Notes: a model not told the origin generated them from the sequence alone. A DNA stretch of 64,000 bases from Candidatus Magasanikiibacteriota bacterium (GCA_041666265.1 JBAYHH010000003.1:2020-66019); one strand, 5' to 3'; positions 3,136-61,298 are shown, numbered from the stretch's first letter. Translations and numbers: made by a program.

Positions 3136-3157
3136 CACCACTTCGCAGTGGTGTCAT
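3134..3157 (+). terminator. perfect 10-bp stem hairpin overlapping the stop codon, no U-tract
   Basis: TGACACCACT-tcgc-AGTGGTGTCA immediately after/overlapping the TGA at 3133-3135, followed directly by a TGTCATCCTGAGC-type repeat. Confidence 0.4.
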
Positions 3158-3187
3158 CCTGAGCCTGCCTTAGCAGGCGAAGGATCT
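3153..3187 (+). repeat. nested-hairpin intergenic repeat, family A (TGTCATYCYGAGC...GAAGRATCT)
   Basis: tgtcatcctgagc-CTGCCTTAGCAGGC-gaaggatct. Terminal arms ATCCT/AGGAT pair and the insert is itself palindromic. Confidence 0.8.
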
Positions 3188-3424
3188 ATCACCGTTTGTC
3201 TTTCTTGCATTGCCCATTTGTGTGGGCACCGCAAGAGAGGGAAAATTCATTATAACAGTTCCATGCAAAAGTCGAGGGTCCATAGTGACTCGCTGGAGCT
3301 TTGTATCGCATGAGATTTGCGCGTAGTATATACACGCGTAAACCATGTGAAACAACTTTAATTCGGTTGACCTCTGCGCTTTATCGCGCGGGGCGCGCAA
3401 TCGGTTAGAGTATTAACTAATATT

Positions 3425-6400
3425 ATGAACTTAATTAAAAAAGTATTTACATTCAGCGTAGTAGCGACTACTATCATGTGGTCTCTCGGCGTTGCGGCCC
3501 TCGTACCGGCTGTAGCCCAAGCTGACGATGTATGTCCTTCCGGCTTGGTTGCTGGCGATATGGTCAAAGTGGCCACTTCTCCGGTGATCTATGTCTTGGA
3601 CAACCAAATGAAGGTTGCTACCTTTATCAACAATGCCACTTCCGGCACCGGTAGCGCCAAAGTATATTACAGCGGTTATAAATCATGGAATCTTGACGAG
3701 AACTATTCTTTCAAGGCCGTGTCTTTTGACTGCTTAAATAAACTCGGATGGTCCACCCAATCGGTTGGTCCTCGCCCGGGTTCTTATGTGATCAAACACC
3801 CGGCTGATGGCAATTTGTATGCCGTTGGTTTGGGTCGCACTTGCTACAAAGTTACTGACGCCCTCGCGAAGCAACTTTATGGCACCAATTACAAGGCTTA
3901 TCCGTTGTCCACTACCCAGGAATTTTCCGGTATGTGCGCCAATGGCGTAGGTGTTGATTGGACTGAAGCCAAAGCCCACCCGGGTATGTTGGTTTCCAAA
4001 GATGGAAAAACTTATTTCGTGAATTCCGACAAGACACTCACCGAGATTACTGCTGAAGGCATGACTGCCAACCGCGTGAAATCTTCTTGGGTGCGCGCGT
4101 TGGATGCCGCTTTGTTGCCGGCCGTCGGCACTGCCGTCGCTGTCACCAAATATGAATCCGCGTTGGGTGATCGCTCACAATCGGGCGTCGCTTCCGCTGG
4201 AAATGACACTGTCGCGACTGGTGCGTTGACTGTCTCTTTGAGCGCCAACACTCCGGCTGCGACCAATTTACCGGATGGCACTTCCTTTAATCCGATTTTA
4301 AAGTTTACTTTAAATGCGGGTCCGGAAGCTGTCACTGTTAGTGGTGTTACCCTCAAAAAGGGTGGCTATGTTCTCAATACCAACATTTCCGGTATTGATA
4401 TCGTGGATGGCAGTGATGTCCGCCATGGTAATGTAGTTTCCTCTGTCAATTCCGACAATGAAGTTCTTATTTTGTTCGGTTCCAACCCAGTGGTTGTACC
4501 AGCCGGCGGTTCTGTCACTTTGACTGCTCGTGTTAACCTCGGCGCTTCTGCCGGTGGTAGCACCGTGAAGTTAGGTGTCAAATCCGTTGTTTCTACCGCC
4601 GCTACCGTTGGTGGTTCATTCCCATTCTATGGCAATGAATTCAATACTGTTGATGGCGCCAATGCCGTTGCTACCGCTTATTTTGATGCATTATCCGTGT
4701 CTGGTTCTGCCGGTACAGATCTGAATGCCGATGCTGATAATGAGCAAGAAATTACCAAATTTCGCTTACAGGAGTATGGTAGCAAAGAGGATCTCAAATT
4801 ATATAAATTAGTCCTCTTCAACTACGGCAATGCTGCGGATGCTGATTATAAGGATGTGCAATTGGTTTCTGCCGATGGTACAGTGCTTGCCACTGCTCAA
4901 CCGGCCAGCCAGTATGTAACCTTTGATCTTTCCGCTTCTCCGTATCTCATTGCCAAGGGTCAATACAAAGATCTTACTGTTCGTGCCAAAATCGTGAGCG
5001 GTACTTCCAAAACCATTCAATTCGTCGCTTATAATGACTACGATGTAATGGTTAAGGGTTCTGACTCCGGTTCTTATGTGTTGCCCACGGTTTCCGGTGG
5101 TGCTGGTTATGAATCTACTTTTCCAGTAGGTGATTTAGGTGCTGCAAGTGTTACTACTTTCAACAAAGTAACTATCGCCGCTGGTACTCTTAGTTTCAAC
5201 AAAGATACCACTTCCCCAACTTCCGCAGTTGCTCCAGGTGCCTCCAATGTTGTCTTGGCTAAATATTATGTCAAGCCGACTGGCGAAAACATGGAGTTAC
5301 GCAAAGTTAGTTTTGGTATTATCCAAACTGACTCCGCCCTTACCGGTAATGTCTATGTAAAAGTAGATGGTGCTACCGTGTGGAGTGGAGCCGTCAATAC
5401 CACTGAATTTCCTTTAGCTGGTACTGTTGGAACCAAGACCCTCAACACTTATCCGATTTTGACTGCCGGCAAGAATGCGTACATTACCGTTGAAGGTTCC
5501 GTGCCTTCCACTGCCACTTCGACCGTGCGCTATACAGTCAATGATTTTGACATCACTGAAGTCAAAAAATTGACCAGCAATACAATTGCCGATCCCGCAG
5601 TCAATACTGCTGATGGCAATCAAATCTCGGTGAATGCGGCTTCGTTATCCGCCAAGACTCTGTCCACTCCGGTGGCCCAGAATATCATTAGCGGTGCAAC
5701 TGGTTTCACTTTCGCCCAGTTCGAACTTAGTGCTAACACTTCTGGTGAAGATGTGCGTATTTCGTCCATTGTTGTTTCAAATGTGGGTACTGGTACTACT
5801 ACTAATATCCTCAATTTGGCTCTCTGGGATGGAACCACTCAATTAACCACCAGCAACAACACTGGTACCGGCGCTGCTTCCACCACCTTCTCCTTGACTA
5901 GCCCGTTGGTTATTACCAAGGGAACTACCAAGACATTGGTGTTAAAAGCTGATTACATTGGCACAACTGCTAATGTCACCCACAAGTTCATGTTGCACAC
6001 CGTTACCGCTACTGGCAAGGATACTGGCACCTCTGTCACTCCTTCCGTTTCCGGTATGGGTCAAGCCATGACTACTGCCTCTGGTCCGACTGTCACTTTG
6101 TCTCTTGTGTCTGGTACCGGCGCCGCGCCGAGTGCCAACCAAGTGGTACAAGTTGCCACCAATGATGGTACTTATTTTGCCTTCAAGATCACTCCGTCCA
6201 ACGAAGCGATCAAGTTGACAACTCTTAAGTTAACCGCCACTGGTACTGGTCTCAATACCAACGATGTGACTAACTTACGGTTATATCGTAACAGTGAAAC
6301 TACTCCGTTCCAGAGCTTGGGTGAAATGACCTGCTCGAGCAATTCCTGTACTGCTACCTGGGGCGGTAGTACTACCGACAACTTATTGCCGGAAGCTGTA

Positions 6401-7102
6401 CAGCCTGGTAGTCCGGTCACCGTCTATTTGAAAGCGGATGTTGGTGCGGCTGGTGTAGCCAAACTTGGAGATGATTTCACCTTCAAGATCAATGCTACCA
6501 CCACCGATTTCGTAGCCAAGGGTGCTACTACCAATGGCTCTGCTCATATTACCGGCACCCCGACAGCTTCTGGCGCCACTCACATTGTACCGTTCACGGT
6601 CAAGGTAGAAAGCGTTTCGCCGACTACCCCGGCCACAATCGGTCTTAGTACTGGTGCTACTGTTGGTGTGTTCAAGGTAACCAACCTTGGTAACGCCCAG
6701 GTTGCTCTTACCAAGCTCAGTTTTGCCAACGGCGGAGCCTCGACATCTTCATTGAATTTTGCTTTGAAGTATTCTACTGACGGCGGCGCGCAAACCGATA
6801 CTACCGGTGGCACTGCTTCAACCACAGCGACCAATCGCGTTGACTTCGGTACTCTTGATACTGCTGTTACTATTAACGGTGGTTCTTGGAGATACTTCAC
6901 AGTCAAGACATCTGGAACTGCTGTCAATTATGATACTTTCCAGTTGTCGGTGAGTTTGTTGGGCGACATTGTGTATAAAGTCAAAGATATCGATCTTGGT
7001 TATGACGGCGATACTGCCGGCGGTATTACTGATACTTATGCCAACACTGGTCTATATACCAGCGGTCTCCCGGCTCTCGAAAGCGTTACTGCTCGTAGCT
7101 AA
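3425..7102 (+). CDS. large secreted Thr/Ser/Gly/Val-rich cell-surface (S-layer-like) protein
   Basis: 1225-aa ORF with a signal peptide (MNLIKKVFTFSVVATTIMWSLGVAALVPAVAQA). The rest is low-complexity T/S/G/A/V-rich sequence with beta-strand-like periodicity and no recognisable enzymatic motifs. Confidence 0.7.
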   Translation: MNLIKKVFTFSVVATTIMWSLGVAALVPAVAQADDVCPSGLVAGDMVKVATSPVIYVLDNQMKVATFINNATSGTGSAKVYYSGYKSWNLDENYSFKAVSFDCLNKLGWSTQSVGPRPGSYVIKHPADGNLYAVGLGRTCYKVTDALAKQLYGTNYKAYPLSTTQEFSGMCANGVGVDWTEAKAHPGMLVSKDGKTYFVNSDKTLTEITAEGMTANRVKSSWVRALDAALLPAVGTAVAVTKYESALGDRSQSGVASAGNDTVATGALTVSLSANTPAATNLPDGTSFNPILKFTLNAGPEAVTVSGVTLKKGGYVLNTNISGIDIVDGSDVRHGNVVSSVNSDNEVLILFGSNPVVVPAGGSVTLTARVNLGASAGGSTVKLGVKSVVSTAATVGGSFPFYGNEFNTVDGANAVATAYFDALSVSGSAGTDLNADADNEQEITKFRLQEYGSKEDLKLYKLVLFNYGNAADADYKDVQLVSADGTVLATAQPASQYVTFDLSASPYLIAKGQYKDLTVRAKIVSGTSKTIQFVAYNDYDVMVKGSDSGSYVLPTVSGGAGYESTFPVGDLGAASVTTFNKVTIAAGTLSFNKDTTSPTSAVAPGASNVVLAKYYVKPTGENMELRKVSFGIIQTDSALTGNVYVKVDGATVWSGAVNTTEFPLAGTVGTKTLNTYPILTAGKNAYITVEGSVPSTATSTVRYTVNDFDITEVKKLTSNTIADPAVNTADGNQISVNAASLSAKTLSTPVAQNIISGATGFTFAQFELSANTSGEDVRISSIVVSNVGTGTTTNILNLALWDGTTQLTTSNNTGTGAASTTFSLTSPLVITKGTTKTLVLKADYIGTTANVTHKFMLHTVTATGKDTGTSVTPSVSGMGQAMTTASGPTVTLSLVSGTGAAPSANQVVQVATNDGTYFAFKITPSNEAIKLTTLKLTATGTGLNTNDVTNLRLYRNSETTPFQSLGEMTCSSNSCTATWGGSTTDNLLPEAVQPGSPVTVYLKADVGAAGVAKLGDDFTFKINATTTDFVAKGATTNGSAHITGTPTASGATHIVPFTVKVESVSPTTPATIGLSTGATVGVFKVTNLGNAQVALTKLSFANGGASTSSLNFALKYSTDGGAQTDTTGGTASTTATNRVDFGTLDTAVTINGGSWRYFTVKTSGTAVNYDTFQLSVSLLGDIVYKVKDIDLGYDGDTAGGITDTYANTGLYTSGLPALESVTARS

Positions 7103-7154: not shown

Positions 7155-7216
7155 AACAAATCGAAACCATACCCGCCCTTCGCTTGAGGGGCGGGTTTTG
7201 GTACTTATCCACAGGC
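7155..7216 (+). terminator. rho-independent terminator within a conserved repeat module, family B, copy 1
   Basis: AAATCGAAACCATA-CCCGCCC-ttcgcttgag-GGGCGGG-TTTTGGTACTTATCCACAGG: 7-bp GC stem plus U-tract. The same module recurs at 8945-9010 and 9700-9765. Confidence 0.8.
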
Positions 7217-7263
7217 GATTTGGCTTAAATTAGCTATTTCTCGCCAAATTGTAGTAATATCAG

Positions 7264-7292: not shown

Positions 7293-7319
7293 AGTATTGT
7301 CATTTAGTAATAATATAAT

Positions 7320-8507
7320 ATGTCAAATGTATTTTTTAGTCGTAAGATTTACGGCCAAATCAAAGAGCATGTATTAGCGAAACAAATAACAGTTTTGACC
7401 GGTATGCGTCGCGTCGGCAAGACTACCATGGTAAAACAATTGCTTTCCGAGATAGTTTCCAAGAATAAAATTTATTTGGATTTGCAACAAATAAACAATC
7501 GTGAATTGTTTTCCGAAAAGAATTTTGATAATATTATCACTCGCTTGAGCCAGCTTGGTTTAAGTCTGGATGAAAAAATGTTTATCGCGATTGACGAAAT
7601 TCAGCTTTTTCCCGAAATCAGCGGTGTTTTGAAGTATCTCTATGACAGTTACGATATTAAATTTATTGTTACCGGTTCCAGCTCGTATTATTTAAAGGAT
7701 TTGTTCAGTGAATCATTGGCCGGTCGCAAGCGCGTATTCGAATTGTTCCCTTTGGATTTCGGGGAATATTTGACTTTCAAAAATATTGTTTGGGCGAACG
7801 CGGACTTTTTGGGCAAACAATTTGATGTCTATGAGTTTGAGCGGTTGCGTATTTTTTATGAAGATTATGTGGAGTATGGCGGTTTTCCAGAGGTGGTATT
7901 GGCCACGAAGTCTGAAGATAAGAAATCTATTCTCAATGACATTATTAGCTCGTATGTTAATATTGATATTAAAACATTGTCTGACTTTCGTGAAAGTAGC
8001 AATGTTTATAATCTTATTAAAATGCTGGCGGCGCGTGTGGGTACTCGGTTGGATTATGCCAAGCTATCTCGGCACAGCGGGATCGCTCGTACCACCGTTA
8101 GTAATTATGTGTCCTTATTTGAAAAAACTTATTTGATTTCTTTGGTGCCGGTGCACACCAATGATACCGATCGAGAAATCGTCAAGGCCAAAAAAGTCTA
8201 TTTTGCCGACAATGGTTTGGTGAATATTTTAGCCGATGTGGATAGTGGTTCAAAGTTTGAAAATGCTGTGTATAATCAGTTGCGACACAAAGGCGAGGTG
8301 CGGTATTTTGCGTTAAAAAATGGCCGAGAAATCGATTTTATTTTTGATGAAAAAATCGCCATGGAAGCGAAGGAGACGCCGACCGAATCAGACGCAATCG
8401 CTTTGGAAGGCTTGACCCAGTTAACCAAGGTAAAAAAATGTCGGCTGATTGGCCGTCATCATTCGCCCCGATATTCAGATTATATTTGGGCCGGGGATAT
8501 TAAATAA
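7320..8507 (+). CDS. AAA+ family ATPase (DUF4143-type)
   Basis: Walker A TGMRRVGKTT, Walker B-like IAIDEIQ, about 395 aa, architecture typical of the widespread AAA/DUF4143 ATPases. Confidence 0.7.
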   Translation: MSNVFFSRKIYGQIKEHVLAKQITVLTGMRRVGKTTMVKQLLSEIVSKNKIYLDLQQINNRELFSEKNFDNIITRLSQLGLSLDEKMFIAIDEIQLFPEISGVLKYLYDSYDIKFIVTGSSSYYLKDLFSESLAGRKRVFELFPLDFGEYLTFKNIVWANADFLGKQFDVYEFERLRIFYEDYVEYGGFPEVVLATKSEDKKSILNDIISSYVNIDIKTLSDFRESSNVYNLIKMLAARVGTRLDYAKLSRHSGIARTTVSNYVSLFEKTYLISLVPVHTNDTDREIVKAKKVYFADNGLVNILADVDSGSKFENAVYNQLRHKGEVRYFALKNGREIDFIFDEKIAMEAKETPTESDAIALEGLTQLTKVKKCRLIGRHHSPRYSDYIWAGDIK

Positions 8508-8563
8508 TCAATTTCTATGGCTTACGCCAAAAAATATTTCAGGATCACTAAAGATTTGCTTGT

Positions 8564-8899
8564 ATGGATAAACAATTATACAGCGCCGCGCAAGTAAAGC
8601 GTTGCGCTCAAAATTTTGTGCGTTATTTACACACGGAATGTCGTTTACCGGTACGGCAAGCGTTTTTATTTGGTTCTTATGCTCAAGGGCGACCGCGTTT
8701 GTGGAGTGATGTGGATATATGTGTGGTCTCTCCTAAATTTAAAAACAGCGCGAGTGCTTTGGAGTATCTTAATGTGCGTCGGCGTCGTTCCGATATTTTA
8801 CATGGCATCGAGCCGCATGGGTTCACTGTCCGTGATTTCGCGGACAATAGCAACCCGCTGGTGGCCGAGATCAAGAAAAACGGCATCCGCATTGTTTAG
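8564..8899 (+). CDS. nucleotidyltransferase-domain protein (MNT-like, no adjacent HEPN partner)
   Basis: The motif FGSYAQGRPRLWSDVDICVV is the minimal nucleotidyltransferase GS-x(n)-DxD signature. Confidence 0.65.
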   Translation: MDKQLYSAAQVKRCAQNFVRYLHTECRLPVRQAFLFGSYAQGRPRLWSDVDICVVSPKFKNSASALEYLNVRRRRSDILHGIEPHGFTVRDFADNSNPLVAEIKKNGIRIV

Positions 8900-8944
8900 T
8901 TGTTTTGCGCCATAAAATCACCCCCCCCGCATTACTTACTTGGA

Positions 8945-9010
8945 TAATCTCGAATAAATAAATCGAAACCATACCCGCCCTTCGCTTGAGGGGCGGGTTT
9001 TGGTTATGTG
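8945..9010 (+). terminator. family B terminator/repeat module, copy 2
   Basis: aaatcgaaaccatacccgcccttcgcttgaggggcgggttttggt, identical hairpin to copy 1. Confidence 0.8.
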
Positions 9011-9057
9011 GTTTCGCAATTTGCGTAATTTAACAAAATCAGGTATAATAATTACAT

Positions 9058-9357
9058 ATGAGTCCCAATATACAAGAAATTAAAAAAATTGCCTCGCCTT
9101 TTTTTAGAAGCCATGGCGTTAAGCGGGCGGCGGTGTTTGGTTCGGTGGCTCGCGGTGAAGCTACGAGAAATAGCGATATCGATATAGTCGTCGAATTCAG
9201 GGGTAAAAAAAGCCTGCTTGATTTAGTGGCGCTGGAGTTGGATTTGGGAGAGCAGTATAGCCGGAAAGTGGATGTTGTAACCTATAATTCACTTCACCCT
9301 TTATTGCGCGATCGTATTCTCAAAGACCAACATATTATCTATGGGCAAGGATCCTAA
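9058..9357 (+). CDS. MNT-type nucleotidyltransferase antitoxin (HepT/MNT type VII TA system)
   Basis: AAVFGSVARGEATRNSDIDIVVEF NTase motif; 99 aa; overlaps the downstream HEPN gene by 17 nt. Confidence 0.8.
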   Translation: MSPNIQEIKKIASPFFRSHGVKRAAVFGSVARGEATRNSDIDIVVEFRGKKSLLDLVALELDLGEQYSRKVDVVTYNSLHPLLRDRILKDQHIIYGQGS

Positions 9358-9688
9358 AATTTTTCTGGCGCATATCTTAGAAAGCATCGATCTGATTGAA
9401 GGGTACACCAAAGGAAAAAAGGAAACGGATTTTGTCCGTTCGGTTGATTTGCAGGATAAAGTAATTCGTCGTTTGGAAATTGTGGGCGAAGCTGTTCGTC
9501 ATCTTCCGGAAACTTTGCGCCAGAATTATCCGGAGACGCCTTGGCGGCAGATTGCCGGTACGCGCGATAAATTTATTCACGAATACTTTGGCGTGGATAT
9601 GGCTTTGACATGGGAGATCGTAAAGCGTGACTTGCCTAAATTAAAAAAGCAGATTTTAAAAATTGAAGAAGATTTGAGTAAAAATTAG
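9341..9688 (+). CDS. HepT-like HEPN (DUF86) RNase toxin
   Basis: 115 aa with the R-x4-H-x-Y HEPN motif (RDKFIHEY), placed immediately downstream of the MNT gene. Confidence 0.8.
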   Translation: MGKDPKIFLAHILESIDLIEGYTKGKKETDFVRSVDLQDKVIRRLEIVGEAVRHLPETLRQNYPETPWRQIAGTRDKFIHEYFGVDMALTWEIVKRDLPKLKKQILKIEEDLSKN

Positions 9689-9699: not shown

Positions 9700-9765
9700 T
9701 GATAAAACCAATCGAAACCATACCCGCCCTCGCCAGGGGGCGGGTTTTGGTACTTATCCACAGGT
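9700..9765 (+). terminator. family B terminator/repeat module, copy 3
   Basis: accaatcgaaaccatacccgccctcgccagggggcgggttttggtacttatccacagg. The loop sequence differs from copies 1-2 but the stem and flanks are conserved. Confidence 0.8.
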
Positions 9766-9959
9766 GTTTTGGCTAACTGGTGCGGTTTTTCATCATGCGT
9801 AAGTCATTTTGATTGCCAAACTCACGGAATTTATACTAAATTTCGGGACTTAAGTCACGATATTCAGTGAAATTTCGGGAGTTGTTTTCTGTGGTTGATA
9901 CGATAACGCAAGTGTAGTATAATCAAAATACGATTTAGATAAATAGTAATCATTTTTTT

Positions 9960-10730
9960 ATGCTCAAAATCGGCATTATCGGCGGATCCGGTCTCGACGA
10001 TCCGAAAATTTTAGAAAATTCGCGCGATTGGGAAGTGAAAACACCCTATGGCGCGACCTCGTCACTTTTGAAATTAGGCGAGATCGCTGGGGTCGAAGTG
10101 GCTTTGATCGCTCGCCATGGACGCGAGCACACCGTCCCGCCCACGCAGGTCAATTACCGCGCCAACATTTGGGCGCTCAAAGATTGGGGAGCGACGCATA
10201 TCCTCGCGACTACCGCCGTGGGGTCACTGCGCGCAGAGATCGGGCGCGGACACTTGGTGGTGCTGGATCAGTTTATAGATTTTACTCGTCATCGTTTTTC
10301 TTCGTTTTACGAGTCGTTTGAGGCGGGAAAAAACGGCCACACGCCGATGGCTGATCCGTTTGATGAGAAATTGCGTGATTTGTTTATCGCCGGGTGCCGT
10401 GATTTGAGTTTGACCCATCATCCGCGCGGGACAGTGGTGACGATCGAGGGGCCGCGGTTTTCCACGCGCGCCGAGAGTCACATGTTTCGCGCCTGGGGAG
10501 CCGATGTGATCAATATGAGCATCGCGCCCGAGGCCGCGCTCGCGCGCGAGCTCGGTTTGCCCTATGGCGCGGTCGCGATGTCCACGGATTATGATTGTTG
10601 GAAAGCCGACGAGGAGCCGGTAACCCACGAGGCTGTGCTCAAAGTCTTCGCGCAAAACGCGCACAATGTCACCAATTTATTGGTCGAGGTGATCAAGAAG
10701 ATAAAAGCTGTTTATCAACTGTCATCCTGA
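9960..10730 (+). CDS. mtnP: S-methyl-5'-thioadenosine phosphorylase (PNP family 2)
   Basis: IGIIGGSGLDDP N-terminus, ...ALIARHGREHTVPP..., ...VINMSIAPEA...: MTAP-type phosphorylase. The stop codon TGA lies inside a family A repeat (cTG TCA TCC TGA). Confidence 0.85.
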   Translation: MLKIGIIGGSGLDDPKILENSRDWEVKTPYGATSSLLKLGEIAGVEVALIARHGREHTVPPTQVNYRANIWALKDWGATHILATTAVGSLRAEIGRGHLVVLDQFIDFTRHRFSSFYESFEAGKNGHTPMADPFDEKLRDLFIAGCRDLSLTHHPRGTVVTIEGPRFSTRAESHMFRAWGADVINMSIAPEAALARELGLPYGAVAMSTDYDCWKADEEPVTHEAVLKVFAQNAHNVTNLLVEVIKKIKAVYQLSS

Positions 10731-10747
10731 GCGAAGCGAAGGATCTC
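10720..10747 (+). repeat. family A repeat (minimal unit)
   Basis: tgtcatcctgagcgaagcgaaggatct. Confidence 0.8.
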
Positions 10748-11309: not shown

Positions 11310-11408
11310 TGTCATTCCCGCGAAAGCCTGCCTGTCCGGTAGGTAGGCGGGAATCTACGCTGTCATTCTGACCTGCCTGCCGGCAGGCAGGGCGAAACGA
11401 AGAATCTA
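11310..11408 (+). repeat. two family A repeats with long GC-rich palindromic inserts
   Basis: tgtcattcccgcgaaagcctgcctgtccggtaggtaggcgggaatct and tgtcattctgacctgcctgccggcaggcagggcgaaacgaagaatct. Confidence 0.8.
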
Positions 11409-11520
11409 TTCGCTCGGCAAAAAAAGTTATCCACAGGCCAAAATTCCAAAAGTGTGCTATACTATTTGCGGGGAGGGAAAACAATCCGCCAGCGTGCGGA
11501 TTGTTTTTATAAAAGGGTAT

Positions 11521-11592
11521 CACTGTCATCCCGACCCATCGCATTGTCATCCTGACTCTCAACGCTGTCATCCTGAGCGAAGCGAAGGATCT
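11521..11592 (+). repeat. three tandem partial/complete family A repeats
   Basis: tgtcatcccgac..., tgtcatcctgac..., tgtcatcctgagcgaagcgaaggatct. Confidence 0.75.
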
Positions 11593-16166: not shown

Positions 16167-16258
16167 TGTCATTCTGAGCCTTGCCCACTGGCAGGCAGGC
16201 GAAGCGAAGAATCTCCATTCGTTTGTGTAGATCCTTCATTAACATTCAGGATGACAGT
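16167..16258. repeat. family A repeat plus inverted partial copy
   Basis: tgtcattctgagccttgcccactggcaggcaggcgaagcgaagaatct at 16167-16214 (+), and caggatgacagtg at 16240-16258, the reverse complement of the repeat head. Confidence 0.75.
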
Positions 16259-16278: not shown

Positions 16279-18396
16279 ATGAAAAAACAAATCGAAATGT
16301 TTATTAAAGGCCTTATTTACGCCTCGTTTTTTGTCCCACTCATCGTTATTCCCTCGTCGTTTATATTTCCGTTTATCGTTCCAAAAATTCTCGCCTTTCG
16401 TACGATTACCGAGCTGATGATGTGCGCTTACGCCTTGCTTTTGGTGATTAATTGGCGTGAGTATCGGCCGAAATTTACCGCGCTCAATTTGGCTTTGGGC
16501 GCGTTTTTGTTGAGTTTTGCTTTGTCGACATTTATTGGGGTTGATCCGTATCATAGTTTTTGGGATAACCACGAGCGTATGTTGGGCCTGTTCACCATCG
16601 CGCATTTTGTCGCCTATTATTTTATTTGCACCGCGGTTTTCAAGACCTGGAGCGATTGGAAGTGGGTGTTGCGGATGTTTTTGATTGGGGGGTCGATCGT
16701 GATGTTTATTGGGGTGTTGCAAGCATGGGTCAATCCGAGTTTGCTTTTAAACAATGGTGCCGCCACGCGTGTGGCCAGTAGCTTGGGCAACGCTATATAT
16801 GTTGGTGGGTATGGTTTATTTTTGTCTTTCGTAGCAGTTTTACTATTTTTGCGTGAAAATAATCCGGTTTGGCGTTGGGTTTATGCAATTCTTGGTATTT
16901 TTGGTGTTTTGGGGTTATTTTACAGCGGTACGCGCGGGTCAATGCTTGGTTTTGTAGCTGGCGCGGGTGTCGCCATGATCGGATATATTATTGCGTTGAA
17001 AGAATACAAAAAAACCCGCCTTGCTTTGATTGGTTTGGCGATTGCCGGAGTGATTTTAATTTCTTTATTTTACATTTTTCGACAAACTGCTTTTGTGAGA
17101 AATTTGCCGGCAGTGGGTCGCACTGTCAACACATCGTTGTCCGATATTGAACGCAGCCCGCGTTGGATTGCGTGGCAAATCGCCATCGAAAGTTGGAAAG
17201 ATCGTCCGATTTTTGGCTGGGGTCCAAATAATTTCTTTTATGCCTTTAACGCGCATTATAATCCCAAGTCGTTGAATTTTGGTTATGGTGAAACCTGGTT
17301 TGATAATGCGCACAATATTATCGTCAATACCTTGGCAGTGCAGGGTGCGTTTGGTTTGATTATATATTTAGCAGTGTTCGTAGTTGGTATCATTAGTTTG
17401 GTAATAGCTTGGAAGAATAATCAACTAAATTATCATATCGCGATTATTGGTAGCGCGTTTTTGGTAGCGCACCTCGTCGGCAATGTGACGGTATTTGAAA
17501 ATCCCACTTCGTATTTGTATTTTATGTTTTGGTTGGCGCTCATAAATAGCGTTTCTGCCACACCTGTCATCCTGAGCGCAGCGAAGGATCTTCACTGTCA
17601 TCCTGAGCCTTGCCTATCGGCAGGCAGGCGTAGCGAAGGATCTAATCGTGTCATTCCCGCGAAAGCGGGAATCCACGGTGGCGACAAGCCCATCAGCTCC
17701 GGCCTTGTCATTGGCGCCGGCGTATTCGCCTTGCTTTTAATTTTTATTTTCAATATCCAACCGGCGCGCGCCAATATGCAGACGCTCGACGCGATTCGTT
17801 ATCTTTCGCAAGATCCCGTTCTCGGTGTTTCTTATACCAAAACCGCGTTGGCGTTTAATTCACCACACATCGATGATATTCGCGCTGACATTGGCCGTAC
17901 TGCCACCCAGATGCTATCGGGCTCGGCCGATAAGCTCGGCAAAGAGCGTAGTCAAGAAATTTTTGAAATCGTTTATCCCGAGTTACAAAAAAATTTGATT
18001 TTACATCCTTTGGACATTCGCAATCAAATCACTTTATCGCAAATGGCGCAGATTGGCTATCAGATCACCAATAATGGTAAATATATCATGGAGGCGCAAA
18101 CGATGCTTGAAGATGCCTTGGTTAAGTCTCCTCGTCGCCAGCAGATTATTTACAGCTTGTCCGCGCTTAAGATGCAGTTAAATCAGGCTCCCGAAGCGGT
18201 GAAATTGCTCGAGCAGACTATCGCGGACAATCCCAATATTGGCGAGAGTTATTGGCGCTTGGCTTATGCGTATAAATTTTTGAATCAAGCAGATAAAATA
18301 GACGAAGTTTTGGCTTTGGCCGAAAAAAATAGCGTTATATTTACCGATGCGGAAAAAAATATTATCGCGCAAATAAAAACCATGCCGGCTAAATAA
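16279..18396 (+). CDS. O-antigen ligase-like (Wzy_C/WaaL family) polytopic membrane protein fused to a C-terminal TPR domain; carries an in-frame family A repeat insertion
   Basis: Multiple TM helices and a Wzy_C-like loop (YSGTRGSMLGF...FGWGPNNFFYAFNAHY...AHNIIVNTLAVQGAFGL). C-terminal TPR-like repeats. Residues encoded by 17561-17683 (TPVILSAAKDLHCHPEPCLSAGRRSEGSNRVIPAKAGIHGG) are a translation of three family A repeats. Confidence 0.75.
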   Translation: MKKQIEMFIKGLIYASFFVPLIVIPSSFIFPFIVPKILAFRTITELMMCAYALLLVINWREYRPKFTALNLALGAFLLSFALSTFIGVDPYHSFWDNHERMLGLFTIAHFVAYYFICTAVFKTWSDWKWVLRMFLIGGSIVMFIGVLQAWVNPSLLLNNGAATRVASSLGNAIYVGGYGLFLSFVAVLLFLRENNPVWRWVYAILGIFGVLGLFYSGTRGSMLGFVAGAGVAMIGYIIALKEYKKTRLALIGLAIAGVILISLFYIFRQTAFVRNLPAVGRTVNTSLSDIERSPRWIAWQIAIESWKDRPIFGWGPNNFFYAFNAHYNPKSLNFGYGETWFDNAHNIIVNTLAVQGAFGLIIYLAVFVVGIISLVIAWKNNQLNYHIAIIGSAFLVAHLVGNVTVFENPTSYLYFMFWLALINSVSATPVILSAAKDLHCHPEPCLSAGRRSEGSNRVIPAKAGIHGGDKPISSGLVIGAGVFALLLIFIFNIQPARANMQTLDAIRYLSQDPVLGVSYTKTALAFNSPHIDDIRADIGRTATQMLSGSADKLGKERSQEIFEIVYPELQKNLILHPLDIRNQITLSQMAQIGYQITNNGKYIMEAQTMLEDALVKSPRRQQIIYSLSALKMQLNQAPEAVKLLEQTIADNPNIGESYWRLAYAYKFLNQADKIDEVLALAEKNSVIFTDAEKNIIAQIKTMPAK
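17565..17676 (+). repeat. three family A repeats lying in-frame inside the CDS at 16279..18396
   Basis: tgtcatcctgagcgcagcgaaggatct; tgtcatcctgagccttgcctatcggcaggcaggcgtagcgaaggatct; tgtcattcccgcgaaagcgggaatc. The last is a perfect 8-bp stem with a GAAA tetraloop. Confidence 0.8.
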
Positions 18397-18397: not shown

Positions 18398-18503
18398 TTG
18401 TCATTCTGACTTGCCTGCCGCCTGCCTGTCCGGTAGGCAGGGTAGGCAGGGTGTAGCCGAATAATCTATTCCTGTGTCATTCTGAGTATAGCCGAAGAAT
18501 CTA
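18398..18503 (+). repeat. two family A repeats immediately after the stop codon
   Basis: tgtcattctgacttgcctgccgcctgcctgtccggtaggcagggtaggcagg...gaataatct and tgtcattctgagtatagccgaagaatct. Confidence 0.8.
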
Positions 18504-19584: not shown

Positions 19585-19717
19585 CTGTCATTCCGAACGA
19601 ATGTGAGGAATCTTTACCCAGTTGTCATCCTGAGCGTTAGCGAAGGATCTTAATCACCTACAATTCACCTGTCATTCTGAGCGAAGCCCGACCTTAGTTG
19701 GGCGGAGTCGAAGAATC
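19585..19717 (+). repeat. three family A repeats in the gmd-fcl intergenic spacer
   Basis: tgtcattccgaacgaatgtgaggaatct; tgtcatcctgagcgttagcgaaggatct; tgtcattctgagcgaagcccgaccttagttgggcggagtcgaagaatct. Confidence 0.8.
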
Positions 19718-19725
19718 TTTCGTAT

Positions 19726-57551: not shown

Positions 57552-57554
57552 ACT

Positions 57555-58301
57555 ATGTCGCAGGTGAGTGTTATAATGGTTTCTCATAATCGCGATAATT
57601 TTATCGGGCTTGCGATTGATAGTGTTTTGTCGCAATCATTTTTTGATTGGGAGATGATTATTATTGACGACTGTTCGACAGATAATACCGGTGCACTCGT
57701 TGGCAAGTATGGCGACCCTCGAATTAAATATTTTAAAAATGAAAGCCGAATGGGTATTGTGCAATCGCGCAACAAGGCTCTATCGATCGCGCGTGGTGAA
57801 TATGTGGCAATATTAGATAGCGATGATATTTGGCAGGATAAAGATAAGCTTAAAAAGCAGGTTGAGTTTCTCCAAAATAATCATGATTATGTTTTGTGTG
57901 GAGGAATGGCTGAGATTATTGATGGGAGCGGTAAAAAAGTTGGAGAAATAAATTTTAAGGAAAAAGATGATGAAATAAGAAAAATAATGCTATTAAGCAA
58001 TCAGCTTGTTCATTCTTCGGTGCTGTACAGAAAAGATCCGGCGGTCGCGGTCGGTGGATATGGTAATTATGAAGTGGGGGAGGACTATGATTTGTTTTTA
58101 AAATTGGGTTTGGTTGGCAAGTTTAAAAATTTGTCTGACCATTTAGTGTTTTACCGTCGTCATACTGGTGGGGTGACATGGCACGATCGACGAAAATCCG
58201 CGTTGTGCCATTTAAAAATTATAATTCAATATCGTAACAGATATCCTAATTATCTTTTTGCCGTACTCAAAGCCTATGTACGAGTAATAATATCATGGTA
58301 G
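57555..58301 (+). CDS. family 2 glycosyltransferase
   Basis: VSVIMVSHNRDNFIGLAIDSVLSQ...IIIDDCSTDNT. Confidence 0.75.
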   Translation: MSQVSVIMVSHNRDNFIGLAIDSVLSQSFFDWEMIIIDDCSTDNTGALVGKYGDPRIKYFKNESRMGIVQSRNKALSIARGEYVAILDSDDIWQDKDKLKKQVEFLQNNHDYVLCGGMAEIIDGSGKKVGEINFKEKDDEIRKIMLLSNQLVHSSVLYRKDPAVAVGGYGNYEVGEDYDLFLKLGLVGKFKNLSDHLVFYRRHTGGVTWHDRRKSALCHLKIIIQYRNRYPNYLFAVLKAYVRVIISW

Positions 58302-58302
58302 T

Positions 58303-59415
58303 ATGAAAATCCTCCACCTCATCACCAAATCCGAACTGGGCGGGGCGCAGACGCATGTAGCTCAACTTTGCAATTATTTTAAAATGAACGGAGTCGATGT
58401 AGTGGTTATGAGCTATCCGGGTGGGTGGCTGGAAGATGAGGTTAATAAAATAGGAGTTAAGTTTTTTCCAAATAAATATTTTTCCAATAGTCCCAATCCC
58501 ATTAAAATTTGGTTGGCGGCCAAGGAGATAAACAAAGTTTTGCTGAGCTTTGCTCCTGACATCGTTCATTGTCACGGCTCCGCTGCGGGCGTGCTAGGGC
58601 GATTGGTGGTTCGTGGTAAAATAAAAACAATTTTTACCGCTCACGGATGGAGTTTTAACAAGGGGGTGCCATTGTGGTTGAAGGTGTTTGGCGTCATCAG
58701 TGAAAAAATTTGTGGATTTTATACATCAAAAATTATCGCGGTATGTAATTTCGTGAAAGAGTACGGGATAAAATATCGGGTAGCCGAATCGGATAAATTT
58801 ACAGTTATTTATAATGGTATCGAAGTCGTTGATGGTAGATCCGTTGCTCCGCTCAGGGTAGCAGACAATCGTGGTAAGCAGAAGATAAAAATGGTGTTTG
58901 TCGGTCGTCTGGCAGCTCCCAAAGACCCGTTTATATTGATGGAAGCCCTTGCTAAAAGTGCAATTAAAGATGATGTTGAATTAAGTATCATTGGATCGGG
59001 TCCACAAGACAGCCGGGTAGCGAAACAAATGAATTCATTAGGATTAACCCAAGTAAAGCTTCTCGGATCCTTGCCCCGCCATCAAGTATTTGATATATTA
59101 AAGCAGTCTGATGTATTTGTATTAACCACCAATTGGGAGGGTTTTCCGTACGCAGTGCTCGAAGCAATGAGTTGTGGTCTGCCGGTGATCGCATCTGATG
59201 TGGGCGGTATTAAAGAAATGATAACACCCGATACGGGAATTTTGGTAAAAAAAGGTGACGCCAATCAATTAAAAATGGCCTTAGAAAAGTTAGTATTAGA
59301 TTCTGAAATGAGGCGACGAATGGGTGATGCCGCTCGAGAAAAGGTAATAAATAGTTTTTCATTGGATAAAATGTTTCAAGAAACTGCCAAAGTTTACGAA
59401 GAAGTATCACGATAG
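58303..59415 (+). CDS. family 4 (GT-B) glycosyltransferase
   Basis: MKILHLITKSELGGAQTHV...; C-terminal E-x7-E region (EGFPYAVLEAMSCGLPVIAS). Confidence 0.8.
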   Translation: MKILHLITKSELGGAQTHVAQLCNYFKMNGVDVVVMSYPGGWLEDEVNKIGVKFFPNKYFSNSPNPIKIWLAAKEINKVLLSFAPDIVHCHGSAAGVLGRLVVRGKIKTIFTAHGWSFNKGVPLWLKVFGVISEKICGFYTSKIIAVCNFVKEYGIKYRVAESDKFTVIYNGIEVVDGRSVAPLRVADNRGKQKIKMVFVGRLAAPKDPFILMEALAKSAIKDDVELSIIGSGPQDSRVAKQMNSLGLTQVKLLGSLPRHQVFDILKQSDVFVLTTNWEGFPYAVLEAMSCGLPVIASDVGGIKEMITPDTGILVKKGDANQLKMALEKLVLDSEMRRRMGDAAREKVINSFSLDKMFQETAKVYEEVSR

Positions 59416-59503
59416 ATTCCCATTCGGCTGTCGCTCAGGGCAGGCTTTCGATTCGCGGAGTTTACCCTGAGCAGAGCCGAATGGGCTTCGCTCAAAATGA
59501 CAA
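59413..59503 (-). repeat. family A repeat (reverse orientation, long palindromic insert)
   Basis: Reverse complement reads ttgtcattttgagcgaagcccattcggctctgctcaggg...ccctgagcgacagccgaatgggaatct. Confidence 0.75.
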
Positions 59504-59514
59504 ATAAATGATTT

Positions 59515-60252
59515 ATGAAAAAAAATAACCAAATGAAAGTCGGAATATTGGGTTATGGCGAGGTGGGCAAGGCCATCGCTAATTTTATTAACAAGCCACT
59601 GATTAAAGATATCGGCCGTGACGATTTTATCGGTAAGAAGATCGGGGTTTTGCATGTTTGTATACCTGATAGCGTTAATTTTGAAAAAATTGTCGGTGAA
59701 AATATATTGTCAACCAAACCAAAGTTGGTGATTATTCATTCTACTGTGGCCGTCGGTAAAACAAAGAATTTGTTTCAAAAGTTTGGCAATGTCGTCCACT
59801 CACCCGTTAGAGGCGTTCACCCCAATCTCTATCAAGGCATTAAAACTTTTATTAAATTTGTCGGAGCTGACAACAAAAAACTGGGAAAAAAAGCGGCTGA
59901 ACACCTGCGCGAAATCGGTATAAAAAATGTAAAAGTTTATACACCATCCGCGACTACCGAATTGGGGAAATTATTAGACACTACTTATTACGGGTTTTGT
60001 ATCGCGTATCACGCCTATGCCAATAAATTATGTAAAAAAACGGGCGCGGATTTTGAAGGTGCAATGACTGATTTTAATATTAGTTACAATGAAGGATATA
60101 AAAAATTAGGTAAGAAAAATGTCATTCGACCGGTTTTGTATCCACCCCAAGACGACAAAATTACCGGACATTGTGTGGTACAAAATACTGAAATTTTAAA
60201 CAAGATTTTTGGGGAAGACGAAATACTGAAATGTATTTTGAGGCACAAGTAG
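59515..60252 (+). CDS. hypothetical NAD(P)-binding dehydrogenase-like protein
   Basis: VGILGYGEVGKAIA Rossmann motif. The central region weakly resembles the UDP-glucose/GDP-mannose dehydrogenase middle domain, but at 245 aa it is too short for a canonical member. Confidence 0.4.
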   Translation: MKKNNQMKVGILGYGEVGKAIANFINKPLIKDIGRDDFIGKKIGVLHVCIPDSVNFEKIVGENILSTKPKLVIIHSTVAVGKTKNLFQKFGNVVHSPVRGVHPNLYQGIKTFIKFVGADNKKLGKKAAEHLREIGIKNVKVYTPSATTELGKLLDTTYYGFCIAYHAYANKLCKKTGADFEGAMTDFNISYNEGYKKLGKKNVIRPVLYPPQDDKITGHCVVQNTEILNKIFGEDEILKCILRHK

Positions 60253-60299
60253 TGAAGATTCTTCGACTCCGCCCTTTGGGCTTCGCTCAGAATGACAAT
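60252..60299 (-). repeat. family A repeat (reverse orientation)
   Basis: Reverse complement reads ttgtcattctgagcgaagcccaaagggcggagtcgaagaatct. Confidence 0.75.
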
Positions 60300-60323
60300 T
60301 TTCTATTTTACTAAACTAAAATT

Positions 60324-61223
60324 ATGTCCCACCTCATCGTCACCGGCGGAGCCGGATTTATCGGCTCGCATCTCACGGATAAATTAATCGCGCTTGGTCA
60401 CTCCGTCACTGTGGTGGATAATTTAATGCTCGGCAAGAAGGAATTTATCAACAAAAAAGCGAAGTTTGCTAAAGCCGATATTCGCGACTACAAAAAATTA
60501 TCAAAAATTTTTAAAAGCGCCGATGCGGTGTTTCATCTCGCTGCCGATCCGCGCTTGCCGGTTTCGATCGAAGATCCGATCGGCACCCATGAGATCAATG
60601 TCACCGGCACGCTCAATGTCCTCATGGCGGCTAAGGAGAACAGTGTCGCCAAAGTTATTTTTTCATCGTCGTGCGTCGTTTATGGCGATCAGCCTTTGCC
60701 GATCAAAGAGGGTGATTCATTTCATCCGGTGAGCCCTTATGGGTTGCACAAATTAATGAGCGAAAAATATTGCCAAATTTTTAGCGCGCTCTATGGTATT
60801 AAAACCGTGTGCCTGCGTTATTTTAATGTCTATGGCCCGCGCAAGCTCGATGCCGGCGGTTATCCGATGGTGATCCCGATTTTTCTCGGTCAAAAAAAAC
60901 GCGGTGAAAAACTGACCATCGTTGGTGATGGTGAATCCACGCGCGACTATGTGTCGGTATATGATGTGGTGGAAGCGAATATCAAAGCCTGGCAATCGAG
61001 CGTGGACGACGGGCGGGGGATAAACATCGGATCGGGACAGCAGGTGAGTGTGAATGCGATCGCGCAAATGATTGGTGGCAAGACGGTCAACATTGCTCCA
61101 CGATCTGGCGAAATGAGATTTGTGCAAGCGGACAATTCGTTGGCCAAAAATTTATTAGGCTGGGAACCAAAAGTGAAATTTGAGGAGGGGATCGAAGAGC
61201 TGAAAAAAGCATGGGGATTATAA
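60324..61223 (+). CDS. NAD-dependent epimerase/dehydratase (UDP-hexose 4-epimerase-like)
   Basis: LIVTGGAGFIGSHL, ...SSSCVVYGD..., SPYGLHK YxxxK motif. Confidence 0.8.
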   Translation: MSHLIVTGGAGFIGSHLTDKLIALGHSVTVVDNLMLGKKEFINKKAKFAKADIRDYKKLSKIFKSADAVFHLAADPRLPVSIEDPIGTHEINVTGTLNVLMAAKENSVAKVIFSSSCVVYGDQPLPIKEGDSFHPVSPYGLHKLMSEKYCQIFSALYGIKTVCLRYFNVYGPRKLDAGGYPMVIPIFLGQKKRGEKLTIVGDGESTRDYVSVYDVVEANIKAWQSSVDDGRGINIGSGQQVSVNAIAQMIGGKTVNIAPRSGEMRFVQADNSLAKNLLGWEPKVKFEEGIEELKKAWGL

Positions 61224-61230
61224 ATAACAA

Positions 61231-61256
61231 AAAAGAGCCTCGTGGCTCTTTTTTTG
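61231..61256. terminator. bidirectional rho-independent terminator between convergent genes
   Basis: aaaAGAGCCtcgtGGCTCTttttt: 6-bp stem, tetraloop, U-tract on the + strand and an A-tract on the other side that serves rpmA on the minus strand. Confidence 0.8.
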
Positions 61257-61298
61257 TATCGATTTTAGATTCATCGGTTCACTCCGGATGACAACGGC

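Follow-up and report, generated by a model that had tools for sequence, protein, structure and literature searches.

The window analysed here, a stretch of 64,000 nucleotides from a metagenomic contig of a Candidatus Magasanikiibacteriota bacterium, contains 18 full copies and two half units of a short hairpin repeat, 20 units in all, distributed among genes that include those for a PNP_UDP_1 protein, a phosphoribosyltransferase, a Wzy_C–TPR protein, a GDP-mannose dehydratase and ribosomal protein L27 (Table 1). The first-pass annotation of this DNA had listed at least 20 copies, and the count was borne out, at a level far above chance: a search with TGTCATYCYGAGC, allowing up to two mismatches, returned 23 matches compared with 3.2 ± 1.9 in shuffled sequences, and none of 100 shuffles reached 23. 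Of three copies placed at 11524-11592, the array itself was found but two members are 21-nt half units and one is full. The minus-strand unit at 16229 is absent from that list; with the copy at 16167 it makes up the one convergent (tag-outward) dimer that the window contains.

Table 1. Repeat units of the window, with their distinguishing features and gene landmarks.
Position	Strand	Unit	Arms, apex and other features	Gene context
3152..3187	+	Type-1 copy	Arms ATCCT/AGGAT; apical mini-palindrome CCTGC-CTTA-GCAGG	17 nt past stop of gene 1789-3135
10720..10746	+	Minimal 27-nt type-1 unit	TGTCATCCTGAGCGAAGCGAAGGATCT	Supplies, inside tag region, TGA stop of PNP_UDP_1 gene 9960-10730
11310..11356	+	NTS-like (type-2) shell	TGTCATTCCCGCG...CGGGAATCT; CCTGCCTGTCCGGTAGGTAGG palindrome within apex	5 nt past stop of phosphoribosyltransferase gene
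11361..11407	+	Type-1 copy	Arms ATTCT/AGAAT; perfect apical palindrome CCTGCCTGCCGGCAGGCAGG	
11524..11592	+	Half-unit array	5' halves 11524-11544 and 11545-11565 (21 nt each, TGTCATCCYGAC + 9 nt), then full minimal unit 11566-11592	
16167..16214	+	Type-1 copy	CTTGCCCACTGGCAGGCAGG insert; left half of convergent dimer	
16229..16256	-	Type-1-like copy	TGTCATCCTGAATGTTAATGAAGGATCT; right half of convergent dimer	
17565..17591	+	Minimal type-1 unit	Apex GCGCAGC	Within gene 16279-18396; read as ..VILSAAKDL..
17596..17643	+	Type-1 copy	CTTGCCTATCGGCAGGCAGG insert	Within gene 16279-18396; read as ..CHPEPCLSAGRRSEGS..
17649..17674	+	Canonical NTS/dRS3-type unit	TGTCATTCCCGCGAAAGCGGGAATCC; 8-bp stem, GAAA loop	Within gene 16279-18396; read as ..VIPAKAGIH..
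18399..18467	+	Type-1 shell	One arm mismatch; CCTGCC-type palindrome nested in another at apex	3 nt past stop of gene 16279-18396
18475..18502	+	28-nt type-1 unit	TGTCATTCTGAGTATAGCCGAAGAATCT	
19586..19613	+	28-nt unit	Arms ATTCC/GGAAT	6 nt past stop of GDP-mannose dehydratase gene
19623..19650	+	28-nt type-1 unit	Arms ATCCT/AGGAT	
19670..19718	+	Type-1 copy	Apical extension GCCCGACC-TTAG-TTGGGCGG	
59414..59502	-	Composite copy	Type-1 5' half, long internal palindrome (predicted DNA fold -23 kcal/mol, z = -4.6), GGGAATCT 3' end	3' end donates TAG stop of gene 58303-59415
60256..60297	-	Type-1 copy	GCCCAAAGGGC apical extension	Antisense to flanking genes
61267..61293	-	Degenerate copy	TGTCATCCGGAGTGAACCGATGAATCT	6 nt past stop of minus-strand L27 gene (61299-61574)

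Sixteen of the 20 units are on the same strand as the adjacent genes, where they directly follow a stop codon or separate two co-oriented genes; four copies are antisense or convergent. The earlier description of the copies as almost exclusively confined to such intergenic sites is correct for most of them but not for the three at 17565-17674, which are in frame and translated within the 705-aa Wzy_C–TPR gene. The repeat-bearing stretch of this protein is a variable linker, and homologous proteins from other MAGs, in independent assemblies, have peptides derived from the repeat in the corresponding position.

A unit consists of an unpaired 5' TGTC tag, a stem that starts with an A-T and a T-A pair and continues with three covarying pairs, a variable apex, and a C after the stem; the TGTC-AT...AT-C frame is present in all 18 full copies. 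In the dominant form, type-1, the tag is followed by ATYCY, a tandem G·A and a GC-GNA-GC mini-hairpin, giving five Watson-Crick pairs, two G·A mismatches, two further pairs and a 3-nt loop, while the canonical NTS-type continuous stem occurs in two window copies; the minimal GAAA-tetraloop unit that had been pointed out by eye is present at 17649. Compensatory covariation of the arms (ATCCT/AGGAT, ATTCT/AGAAT and ATTCC/GGAAT in the window) had also been proposed, and a formal alignment test with shuffles upholds it. Arm pairing was perfect in 13 of 14 window copies found by a search imposing no complementarity, double-sided changes occurred at five of seven stem pairs, and 35 covarying double-sided cells were observed against 10.0 ± 2.9 in shuffles; no shuffle out of 500 scored as high as the real alignment, and slide controls were far lower. 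Among hairpins at the Ssn loci described below, all three variable pairs were complementary in 130 of 145, compared with 28 expected. The proposal that selection acts on the hairpin rather than on the primary sequence holds only in its first part, because sequence is conserved as well, namely in the unpaired 5' TGTC, the AT with which the stem opens, the tandem GA and the C on the 3' side, a pattern that fits a sequence-specific protein partner. The GTC 5' of the palindrome and the C 3' of it are invariant among 42 distinct aligned units, as are the first two stem pairs (pairs 5-28 and 9-27) in the alignment. Predicted single-strand folds of the hairpins come out as expected.

Variable and sometimes nested apical palindromes are a real feature of the family, but the CCTGCC...GGCAGG insert, which had been described as general, is found in only six copies, and the remaining copies have different apical sequences. 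This palindrome is restricted to hairpin apices, occurs in both hairpin classes and is once nested inside itself; it may be a second-order element with hairpin loops as its targets. Arrays of tandem 5' half units ahead of full copies recur in many genomes and, together with the apex-restricted palindrome, hint at how the element grows.

The repeats had been called REP/MITE-like, of a family not recognized; the likeness to REPs stands, but the family can be named. Judged by their sequence, they are members of the TGTC/CGTC-tagged REP superfamily (Neisseria dRS3/NTS, Rickettsia RPE-4/6 and the Ssn-related motifs, SRM), and copy 17649 is the Neisseria NTS (CGTCATTCCCGCGMAVGCGGGAATCYRG) except for a T in place of C at the first tag base. 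Rfam gave no matches at gathering thresholds across the whole window, and the five matches obtained at E ≤ 10 for 10.6-19.8 kb were all far below gathering scores and not credible; one of these five, to FtrB at 17637-17745, overlaps copy 17649.

According to Chenal 2025 (PMC11893778), SRM/NTS hairpins are bound as ssDNA by small GIY-YIG Ssn nucleases (cd10448-type) and nicked just upstream. In the NTS mutagenesis described there, the GTC 5' of the palindrome was critical for cleavage and the 3' C for binding, whereas the identity of the loop was dispensable and its extension tolerated, a tolerance that the variable apices found here match; SsnA did not bind an RNA version of the site. The biochemistry is confined to sites of the NTS type, taken from Wolbachia and three species of Neisseria. 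The SRM search pattern given in the same source, HGTCWYN(0-2)YYVSBRHN(0-5)WNVSBRGN(0-2)RNCYNB, matches one of the 20 window units (17649), and 17 full copies and both half units fail it, the type-1 units because its V and S positions fall on T or A.

The pattern of the 27-nt unit was found on more than 120 genome contigs from more than 20 phyla, four CPR groups included, and on more than 120 viral contigs in IMG/VR, so that the family is not specific to the CPR lineage, a question that the first-pass annotation had raised. Copies are gained and lost between related genomes: in a syntenic Magasanikbacteria contig, orthologous junctions carry different copy numbers and types, and the Wzy-to-GMD spacer, which is 129 nt long with two copies here, is 1 nt long there, with none. 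Where hairpins lie next to each other across genomes, convergent dimers dominate (158 of 271 adjacent pairs).

The association with nuclease genes was measured at 80 metagenome loci encoding 92-100-aa single-domain GIY-YIG proteins (Pfam PF01541, E = 6e-16), which we call Ssn-like on the basis of their size and PF01541 domain; NCBIfam models gave no match to these proteins. The density of tagged hairpins was 5.4/kb at distances of up to 100 nt from the gene and 0.14-0.27/kb beyond 400 nt, an approximately 30-fold enrichment to which mostly type-1 hairpins contribute. A hairpin lay within 150 nt of the gene at 48 of the 80 loci, and on both sides at 27. The flanks of the Ssn ORFs were of type-1 only in 43 of 87 cases and of NTS type only in seven, never of both, and the flanking hairpins point their tags outward (upstream, 35 of 42 in plus orientation; downstream, 32 of 44 in minus orientation). 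CPR ssn genes lie in the same hairpin-bracketed cassette, and one Ssn-like protein (L228) is encoded by a gene flanked by NTS-type hairpins. No GIY-YIG ORF was found in the window or in 12 kb of its flanks (76 kb of contig in all). Unbiased clustering of the 3,233 ORFs within 400 nt of hairpins at 240 loci revealed no recurrent transposase.

Taken with the published behaviour of NTS, these observations make it probable that the repeats, as members of the tagged superfamily, are ssDNA hairpin sites for an Ssn-family GIY-YIG nuclease. When DNA becomes single-stranded, during replication, DNA uptake or transfer, the tagged hairpin would form, and a small single-domain Ssn nuclease would read its base and flanks and then cut one strand a short way (a few nucleotides) upstream of the tag. 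Because the nuclease would ignore the apex, this part would be free to hold arbitrary or nested palindromes. The nuclease gene would normally be framed by a pair of hairpins with their tags outward, in the manner of a miniature insertion sequence, with solo hairpins being either non-autonomous progeny of the cassette or sites kept for the nuclease. Copies would be retained at sites where the damage is slight, such as those behind stop codons, where some of them provide the stop itself, and the variable linker of a protein. We infer that the Ssn associated with type-1 sites cuts them, that the source genome encodes such an enzyme, and that the repeat owes its spread to Ssn. Several observations count against this explanation: the 76 kb of contig hold no GIY-YIG gene, type-1 units fail the SRM search pattern, the CPR ssn genes examined have NTS-type rather than type-1 flanks, adjacent copies in the window are mostly in tandem on the same strand whereas convergent dimers predominate elsewhere, and the minimal type-1 unit has weak predicted ssDNA stability (-2.7 kcal/mol, z = -0.8). 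Nearest-neighbour parameters probably credit G·A pairs and GNA loops with too little stability. More tentatively, type-1 may form a specificity class of its own among Ssn-type ssDNA nuclease sites, one that is very widespread, so far undescribed and served by its own ssn genes; if so, it is a class that the published SRM search pattern overlooks.

A role mainly in RNA appears unlikely; the units would then be stem-loops in 3'-UTRs or between cistrons, terminating or pausing transcription or shielding the 3' ends of mRNA from exonuclease attack, a function that has been proposed for the REPs of E. coli. The coding-strand, post-stop position of most units agrees with such a role, as do their RNA folds (-7 to -18 kcal/mol), and Di Nocera, De Gregorio & Rocco 2013 (PMC3733652) suggest that many tagged REPs are transcribed. 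Against it, the copies have no T-tract, their tails running ATCT and then mixed sequence, and a terminator scan called none of them, although canonical terminators exist elsewhere in the genome (e.g. 7179, 8973 and 9729). Nor would an RNA role account for the four antisense or convergent copies, the three inside coding sequence, or orthologous spacers in the relative that have no copy or a different one; an RNA stem does not need the unpaired TGTC, the 3' C or near-identity across phyla, and the failure of SsnA to bind its site as RNA points the same way. The RNA or terminator function implied by the earlier description thus finds no specific support, and individual copies may have a secondary effect at the RNA level.

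Two further explanations keep the hairpins as DNA sites but assign them to other enzymes. That they are targets of the site-specific recombinases of other elements, as dRS3 is for a Neisseria filamentous prophage, with no dedicated enzyme, would suit the confinement of the CCTGCC...GGCAGG palindromes to apices, as if hairpins were insertion targets, and the frequency of hairpins on viral contigs; it is very unlikely, since no recombinase or integrase lies beside the window copies or recurs in the 240 loci, and it leaves the multiplication of the hairpins and their bracketing of ssn genes unexplained. Still less credible is a classical REP/REPIN mobilized by a RAYT (an IS200/IS605-type Y1 HUH transposase) whose gene would lie in another part of the genome. 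The short tagged palindromes, high copy number and predominance of convergent dimers do look REP-like, but the tag is TGTC rather than GTAG, Di Nocera 2013 reports no tyrosine transposase flanked by CGTC-type repeats, the ORF clustering revealed no Y1 cluster, and the gene bracketed by these hairpins encodes a GIY-YIG nuclease. Chance or an assembly artefact, for which the metagenomic origin of the contig and nothing else speaks, can practically be dismissed in view of the excess of matches over expectation and the recurrence of the units in hundreds of independent assemblies. The suspicion of an artefact is refuted because the assembler k-mer of 141 (a value inferred from the contig name) exceeds the length of the units (26-89 nt) and independent assemblies encode the same repeat peptides.

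The hairpin family is seen here in a CPR bacterium, mostly in a variant form of which we found no description and which is possibly a new class. The repeats resemble NTS/SRM in their GTC-containing 5' tag, stem starting with AT, C after the stem and free loop, in the bracketing of the nuclease gene by hairpins, and in the hundreds of solo copies in many phyla. They differ in that most window copies are type-1, with a 5-bp Watson-Crick stem, tandem G·A and GC-GNA-GC apex, and in that the 76 kb examined contain no ssn gene; the host, a member of the Magasanikbacteria, belongs to a group that we did not find discussed in the sections of PMC11893778 on which we draw.

The CGTC-tagged REPs of PMC3733652, reported from five phyla among which CPR is not included, share with our repeats a tag that is often TGTC, A-T and T-A as first stem pairs and a short tail on the 3' side; they too lie downstream of genes, include in-frame units within genes and have no associated transposase. 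They were defined by 8-9-bp stems and 4-5-nt loops, a definition that copy 17649 satisfies, and candidates with more than one stem mismatch were discarded, which places type-1 outside the set because of its two G·A mismatches. The same study equates RPE-4 and RPE-6 with CGTC-4 and CGTC-1, and our repeats are, by description, like RPE in being palindromic and translated in frame (the three copies in the Wzy_C–TPR linker), but most copies are intergenic and the host is, as far as known, not an obligate intracellular bacterium. With the REP/BIME and REPIN–RAYT systems of Proteobacteria the family has in common short tagged ssDNA hairpins, high copy number, inverted dimers and a 'domesticated' enzyme whose single-copy gene stands between repeats of its own, the differences being a TGTC instead of a GTAG tag and a GIY-YIG nuclease, with another fold and chemistry, in place of the Y1 HUH transposase, RAYT.

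The 13-mer TGTCATYCYGAGC, with up to two mismatches, matched the window 23 times, far above the 3.2 ± 1.9 matches in dinucleotide-preserving shuffles, and sequence inspection together with a search for the tag with a complementary arm gave a total of 18 full copies and two half units; 14 full copies and both half units lie on the plus strand and four full copies on the minus strand. The copies listed in the first-pass annotation were confirmed to within a few bases, one on the minus strand (16229-16256) having been missed, and the possibility it had raised of an assembly artefact is excluded for the repeats. All copies are confined to 3-20 kb and 59-61.3 kb of the window, with none in the 38-kb low-GC glycosyltransferase island between these stretches. 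This island (21000-59000; GC 0.33-0.38) is dense with glycosyltransferase and polysaccharide-biosynthesis genes and has hairpin-free spacers of 60 nt or less, the GC of its copy-bearing flanks being 0.42-0.50; it may be a recent acquisition, or may simply offer no room for insertions. The GC skew of the plus strand is positive across the whole window and, if positive skew marks the leading strand, most hairpin sites lie on the lagging-strand template, an assignment that is confounded with gene orientation. Six exact copies of the DnaA-box consensus TTATCCACA are present, but no replication origin is indicated within the window, because the skew keeps its sign.

Every copy begins with TGTC and ends in ...AT-C-(T/C); in the stem that follows the TGTC, pairs one and two are invariably A-T and T-A, and the next three pairs vary. 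In the dominant form, type-1 (16 of the 18 full copies, including the composite at 59414-59502 and the degenerate copy at 61267-61293), the stem extends as GA/GA (tandem G·A) with a GC-GNA-GC cap, the minimal unit being the 27-nt TGTCATCCTGAGCGAAGCGAAGGATCT. The two type-2 copies, which start at 17649 and 11310, are built on an uninterrupted G+C stem, for example TGTCATTCCCGCGAAAGCGGGAATCC. Folding of the units predicted the expected hairpins, type-2 giving a strong prediction (z = -4.9) and minimal type-1 a weak one (z = -0.8 for DNA); nearest-neighbour parameters underestimate the stability of d(GCGNAGC) mini-hairpins and of tandem sheared G·A pairs. A separate palindrome with a 10-bp stem, TGACACCACT-TCGC-AGTGGTGTCA (3133-3156), overlaps both the stop-codon region of the gene at 1789-3135 and the TGTCA tag of the copy at 3152.

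Pairing was examined with a hairpin search that imposed no complementarity at the three variable pairs. All three were complementary in 13 of 14 hairpins in the window (5.2 expected after shuffling), in 509 of 559 at pattern-derived loci (194.5 expected) and in 130 of 145 at loci encoding Ssn, a small single-domain GIY-YIG ssDNA nuclease (28 expected), and the same unconstrained search returned at least nine arm types. In an alignment of 42 distinct 27-nt units, likewise chosen without a pairing constraint, two-sided changes occurred at five of seven pairs and filled 35 cells, compared with 10.0 ± 2.9 in shuffles, none of 500 of which reached 35; the covariation score was 0.323, compared with 0.153 in shuffles and at most 0.133 in slid controls. 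The stem is therefore maintained, and the compensatory covariation of the arms first remarked on by eye holds in a proper alignment. The accompanying view, that selection acts on the hairpin rather than on the sequence, is only partly borne out, because the sequence itself is conserved at the tag, at the AT that opens the stem, at the GA dinucleotides and at the 3' C.

The apex varies among copies. The CCTGCC...GGCAGG palindrome, which had been described as the basis of the inserts, is present in six, and others hold unrelated extensions. It is located only inside hairpin apices, in both hairpin classes, is nested in itself once (in the copy at 18399) and is rare outside the window (3 of 639 copies); a similar palindrome lies near one ssn gene of the Candidate Phyla Radiation (CPR). 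A half unit consists of the tag, the 5' arm and then 8-20 nt. In 19 sources, 24 arrays of such units, with a period of about 21-30 nt, lie immediately upstream of a full hairpin, the array in the window having two 21-nt 5' half units and then one full unit. No matching 3' halves were found downstream of the 24 arrays, and simple nested insertion therefore does not explain them.

Positions of apical palindromes, half-unit arrays and other repeats in the window, and hairpin copies at orthologous junctions (L numbers, fetched loci; L326, syntenic Magasanikbacteria contig)
Feature	Window	Other loci
CCTGCC(TGCC)...(GGCA)GGCAGG palindrome	3164, 11327-11391, 16180-16199, 17609-17628, 18411-18450	L328, about 1320-1345
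Half-unit arrays	11524-11592	L244, L247, L249, L097, L182, L200, L328
Junction, Wzy to GDP-mannose dehydratase	129-nt spacer, 2 copies	L326, 1-nt spacer, none
Junction, upstream of Wzy	2 copies	L326, none
Junction, dehydratase to epimerase	3 copies	L326, 1 copy, different apex
Junction, PNP to phosphoribosyltransferase	1 type-1 copy	L326, type-2 dimer
Terminator module	7160-7230, 8960-9010, 9710-9775; TTATCCACAGG also at 11427	
DnaA-box consensus	300, 7205, 9754, 11427 (+); 720, 22111 (-)	

The copies turn over between relatives. In the related Magasanikbacteria contig L326, which has the same gene order and a Wzy protein 75% identical, the orthologous junctions differ, and a more distant relative has zero copies in 22 kb. 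Placement after stop codons or between genes, as initially described, does not extend to the three copies at 17565-17674, all of which are within a single gene. The product of this gene (705 aa; Wzy_C + TPR) is colinear with homologues of 680-700 aa, the repeats forming its variable linker, and the repeat-derived peptides CHPERSEGS and AKAGIQ occur at the same place in three homologues. Two genes have stop codons supplied by the repeat. L326 also lacks an extra block at 7320-9688 (AAA_14/DUF4143 and two NTP_transf_2/HepT), which is therefore probably an inserted toxin-antitoxin block. A second repeat family, the canonical intrinsic-terminator module AATCGAAACCATACCCGCCC-loop-GGGGCGGGTTTTGGTACTTATCCACAGG, lies 3' of the gene for a 1225-aa protein (3425-7102) and of the first NTP_transf_2 and HepT genes of this block, and includes three of the six DnaA-box copies.

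Individual copies may have a role as RNA, but such a role would leave the conserved unpaired flanks, the turnover and the antisense and intragenic copies unexplained. The copies lack T-tracts, on which ground we rejected a reading as intrinsic terminators, and the genome has terminators of its own. Rfam gave no credible match, at gathering thresholds or at permissive E-values, and a hammerhead or k-turn reading of CUGA...GAA was rejected on inspection because the units lack the bulge and the core nucleotides.

Lineage specificity, which had been suggested for checking, was not found. The exact pattern TGTCATYCTGAGC-N3-33-CGAAGRATCT matched at least 120 stretches in GTDB species genomes and at least 120 in IMG/VR viral contigs; among the matches listed, the GTDB groups include Nitrospirota, Chloroflexota, Acidobacteriota, Bacteroidota, Firmicutes, Planctomycetota, Verrucomicrobiota, Cyanobacteria, Rickettsiales, Coxiellaceae, Gemmatimonadota and four CPR groups, with others besides. 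Several of the viral contigs with type-1 hairpins (L001-L120) have phage structural genes in common near the hairpins.

Because type-1 hairpins fail the published search pattern for the Ssn-related motif (SRM), we tested their association with ssn genes directly. An Ssn-like protein was encoded in 3 of 240 repeat-bearing loci among the matches listed, and in all three the gene was directly flanked by tagged hairpins. In the reverse test, on 80 metagenome loci with genes for relatives of these proteins, the density of tagged hairpins was 5.4 per kb within 100 nt of the gene, 2.4 per kb at 100-200 nt and 0.14-0.27 per kb beyond 400 nt; at least one hairpin lay within 150 nt in 48 loci, and 27 had a hairpin on both sides. 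Hairpins flanking ssn genes are oriented tag-outward, as in terminal inverted repeats. The two classes are mutually exclusive, the flanks of 87 Ssn ORFs being type-1 only in 43, type-2 only in seven and of both classes in none, in a sample that favours type-1, having been picked as relatives of proteins from type-1-bearing loci; protein identity gave a weak signal with respect to hairpin class. Searches of NCBIfam, PADLOC, PHROGs and PDB with the Ssn-like proteins returned nothing informative beyond the GIY-YIG fold.

CPR genomes also contain the hairpin-ssn-hairpin cassette, with type-2 hairpins (contigs L323 and L328-L337), at sites that include a ruvB-ruvC gap (L323) and, in the contexts of two different proteins, TraC-like/PrgI/TrbL (type IV secretion-like) clusters; these are neighbourhoods of DNA recombination or transfer. 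Ssn-like proteins of 69-78% identity (P0239-P0329) have named sources in Patescibacteria, Planctomycetia, Omnitrophica, Nitrospinae and Anaerolineae, a spread that suggests movement between phyla. Most are on contigs of 0.5-2 kb, which is expected because repeat-flanked genes break assemblies. The listed homologues include other Patescibacteria and no named Magasanikbacteria Ssn, and no GIY-YIG gene was found in the window or its 6.5-kb and 5.6-kb contig extensions (76 kb of source genome); the nuclease is presumably encoded elsewhere in this genome.

The best-supported reading makes each repeat an ssDNA hairpin site for a nuclease of the Ssn type, which would read the stem base and flanks and leave the apex free; solo hairpins would then be either non-autonomous relatives of the cassette or sites retained for the nuclease. 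Under this reading Ssn would act on type-1 sites, and it might also take part in copying the repeats. Mobilisation by a RAYT or other transposase was rejected: unbiased clustering of ORFs near the hairpins, in the 240 loci among the matches listed, gave no recurrent gene other than ssn, returning only phage structural genes, common to at most 12 loci. A reading of the repeats solely as recombinase targets is likewise without any associated gene. With an Ssn-type nuclease as the likely protein partner, a repeat scattered through CPR and numerous other genomes now has a name; VILSEAKDL, CHPERSEGS and VIPAKAGI are among the spurious peptides to which it repeatedly gives rise. It affects genes by donating stop codons, making intergenic spacers and, in a conserved membrane protein, providing a linker that is translated. 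The range of sequence-specific ssDNA cutters could be broadened by type-1 sites and the nucleases that go with them.

The family, not recognised in the first-pass annotation, was identified by searching the literature for the type-2 sequence; this search led through Neisseria to Di Nocera 2013 and Chenal 2025 and matched the family to the CGTC-tagged REP/Ssn-related hairpin system. In the accessible text of the former (PMC3733652), the superfamily, dRS3 in Neisseria and RPE-4/6 in Rickettsia, has a tag that is often TGTC, AT-starting stems, a 3' tail, inverted dimers and intragenic units, and no transposase. In that of the latter (PMC11893778), the longer oriented Neisseria repeat NTS, CGTCATTCCCGCGMAVGCGGGAATCYRG, and related SRM hairpins flank genes for GIY-YIG proteins of about 94 aa, named SsnA, which bind the hairpin only as ssDNA and nick a few nucleotides upstream; the three bases 5' of the palindrome are important for cutting and the C 3' of it for binding, and change or extension of the loop is tolerated. 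The kind of element is thus already known. Searchable paper text gave only unrelated matches to the type-1 sequence, the literature on CPR repeats gave nothing relevant, and the family is absent from the RepRanger paper. Type-1, outside both published definitions, appears to be a new class, although it is possibly shown in the figures or supplementary tables of those papers, and the published search pattern misses what is possibly the commonest hairpin class. The CPR, to which the system now extends, appears, from the text of the same papers, to be a new host group, and the apical palindromes and half-unit arrays also appear new. The GTC...C frame of NTS and SRM is kept in all window copies, and the copy at 17649 (17649..17674, plus strand), the only one to match the SRM pattern, is equal to NTS save for T in place of C at the first tag base.
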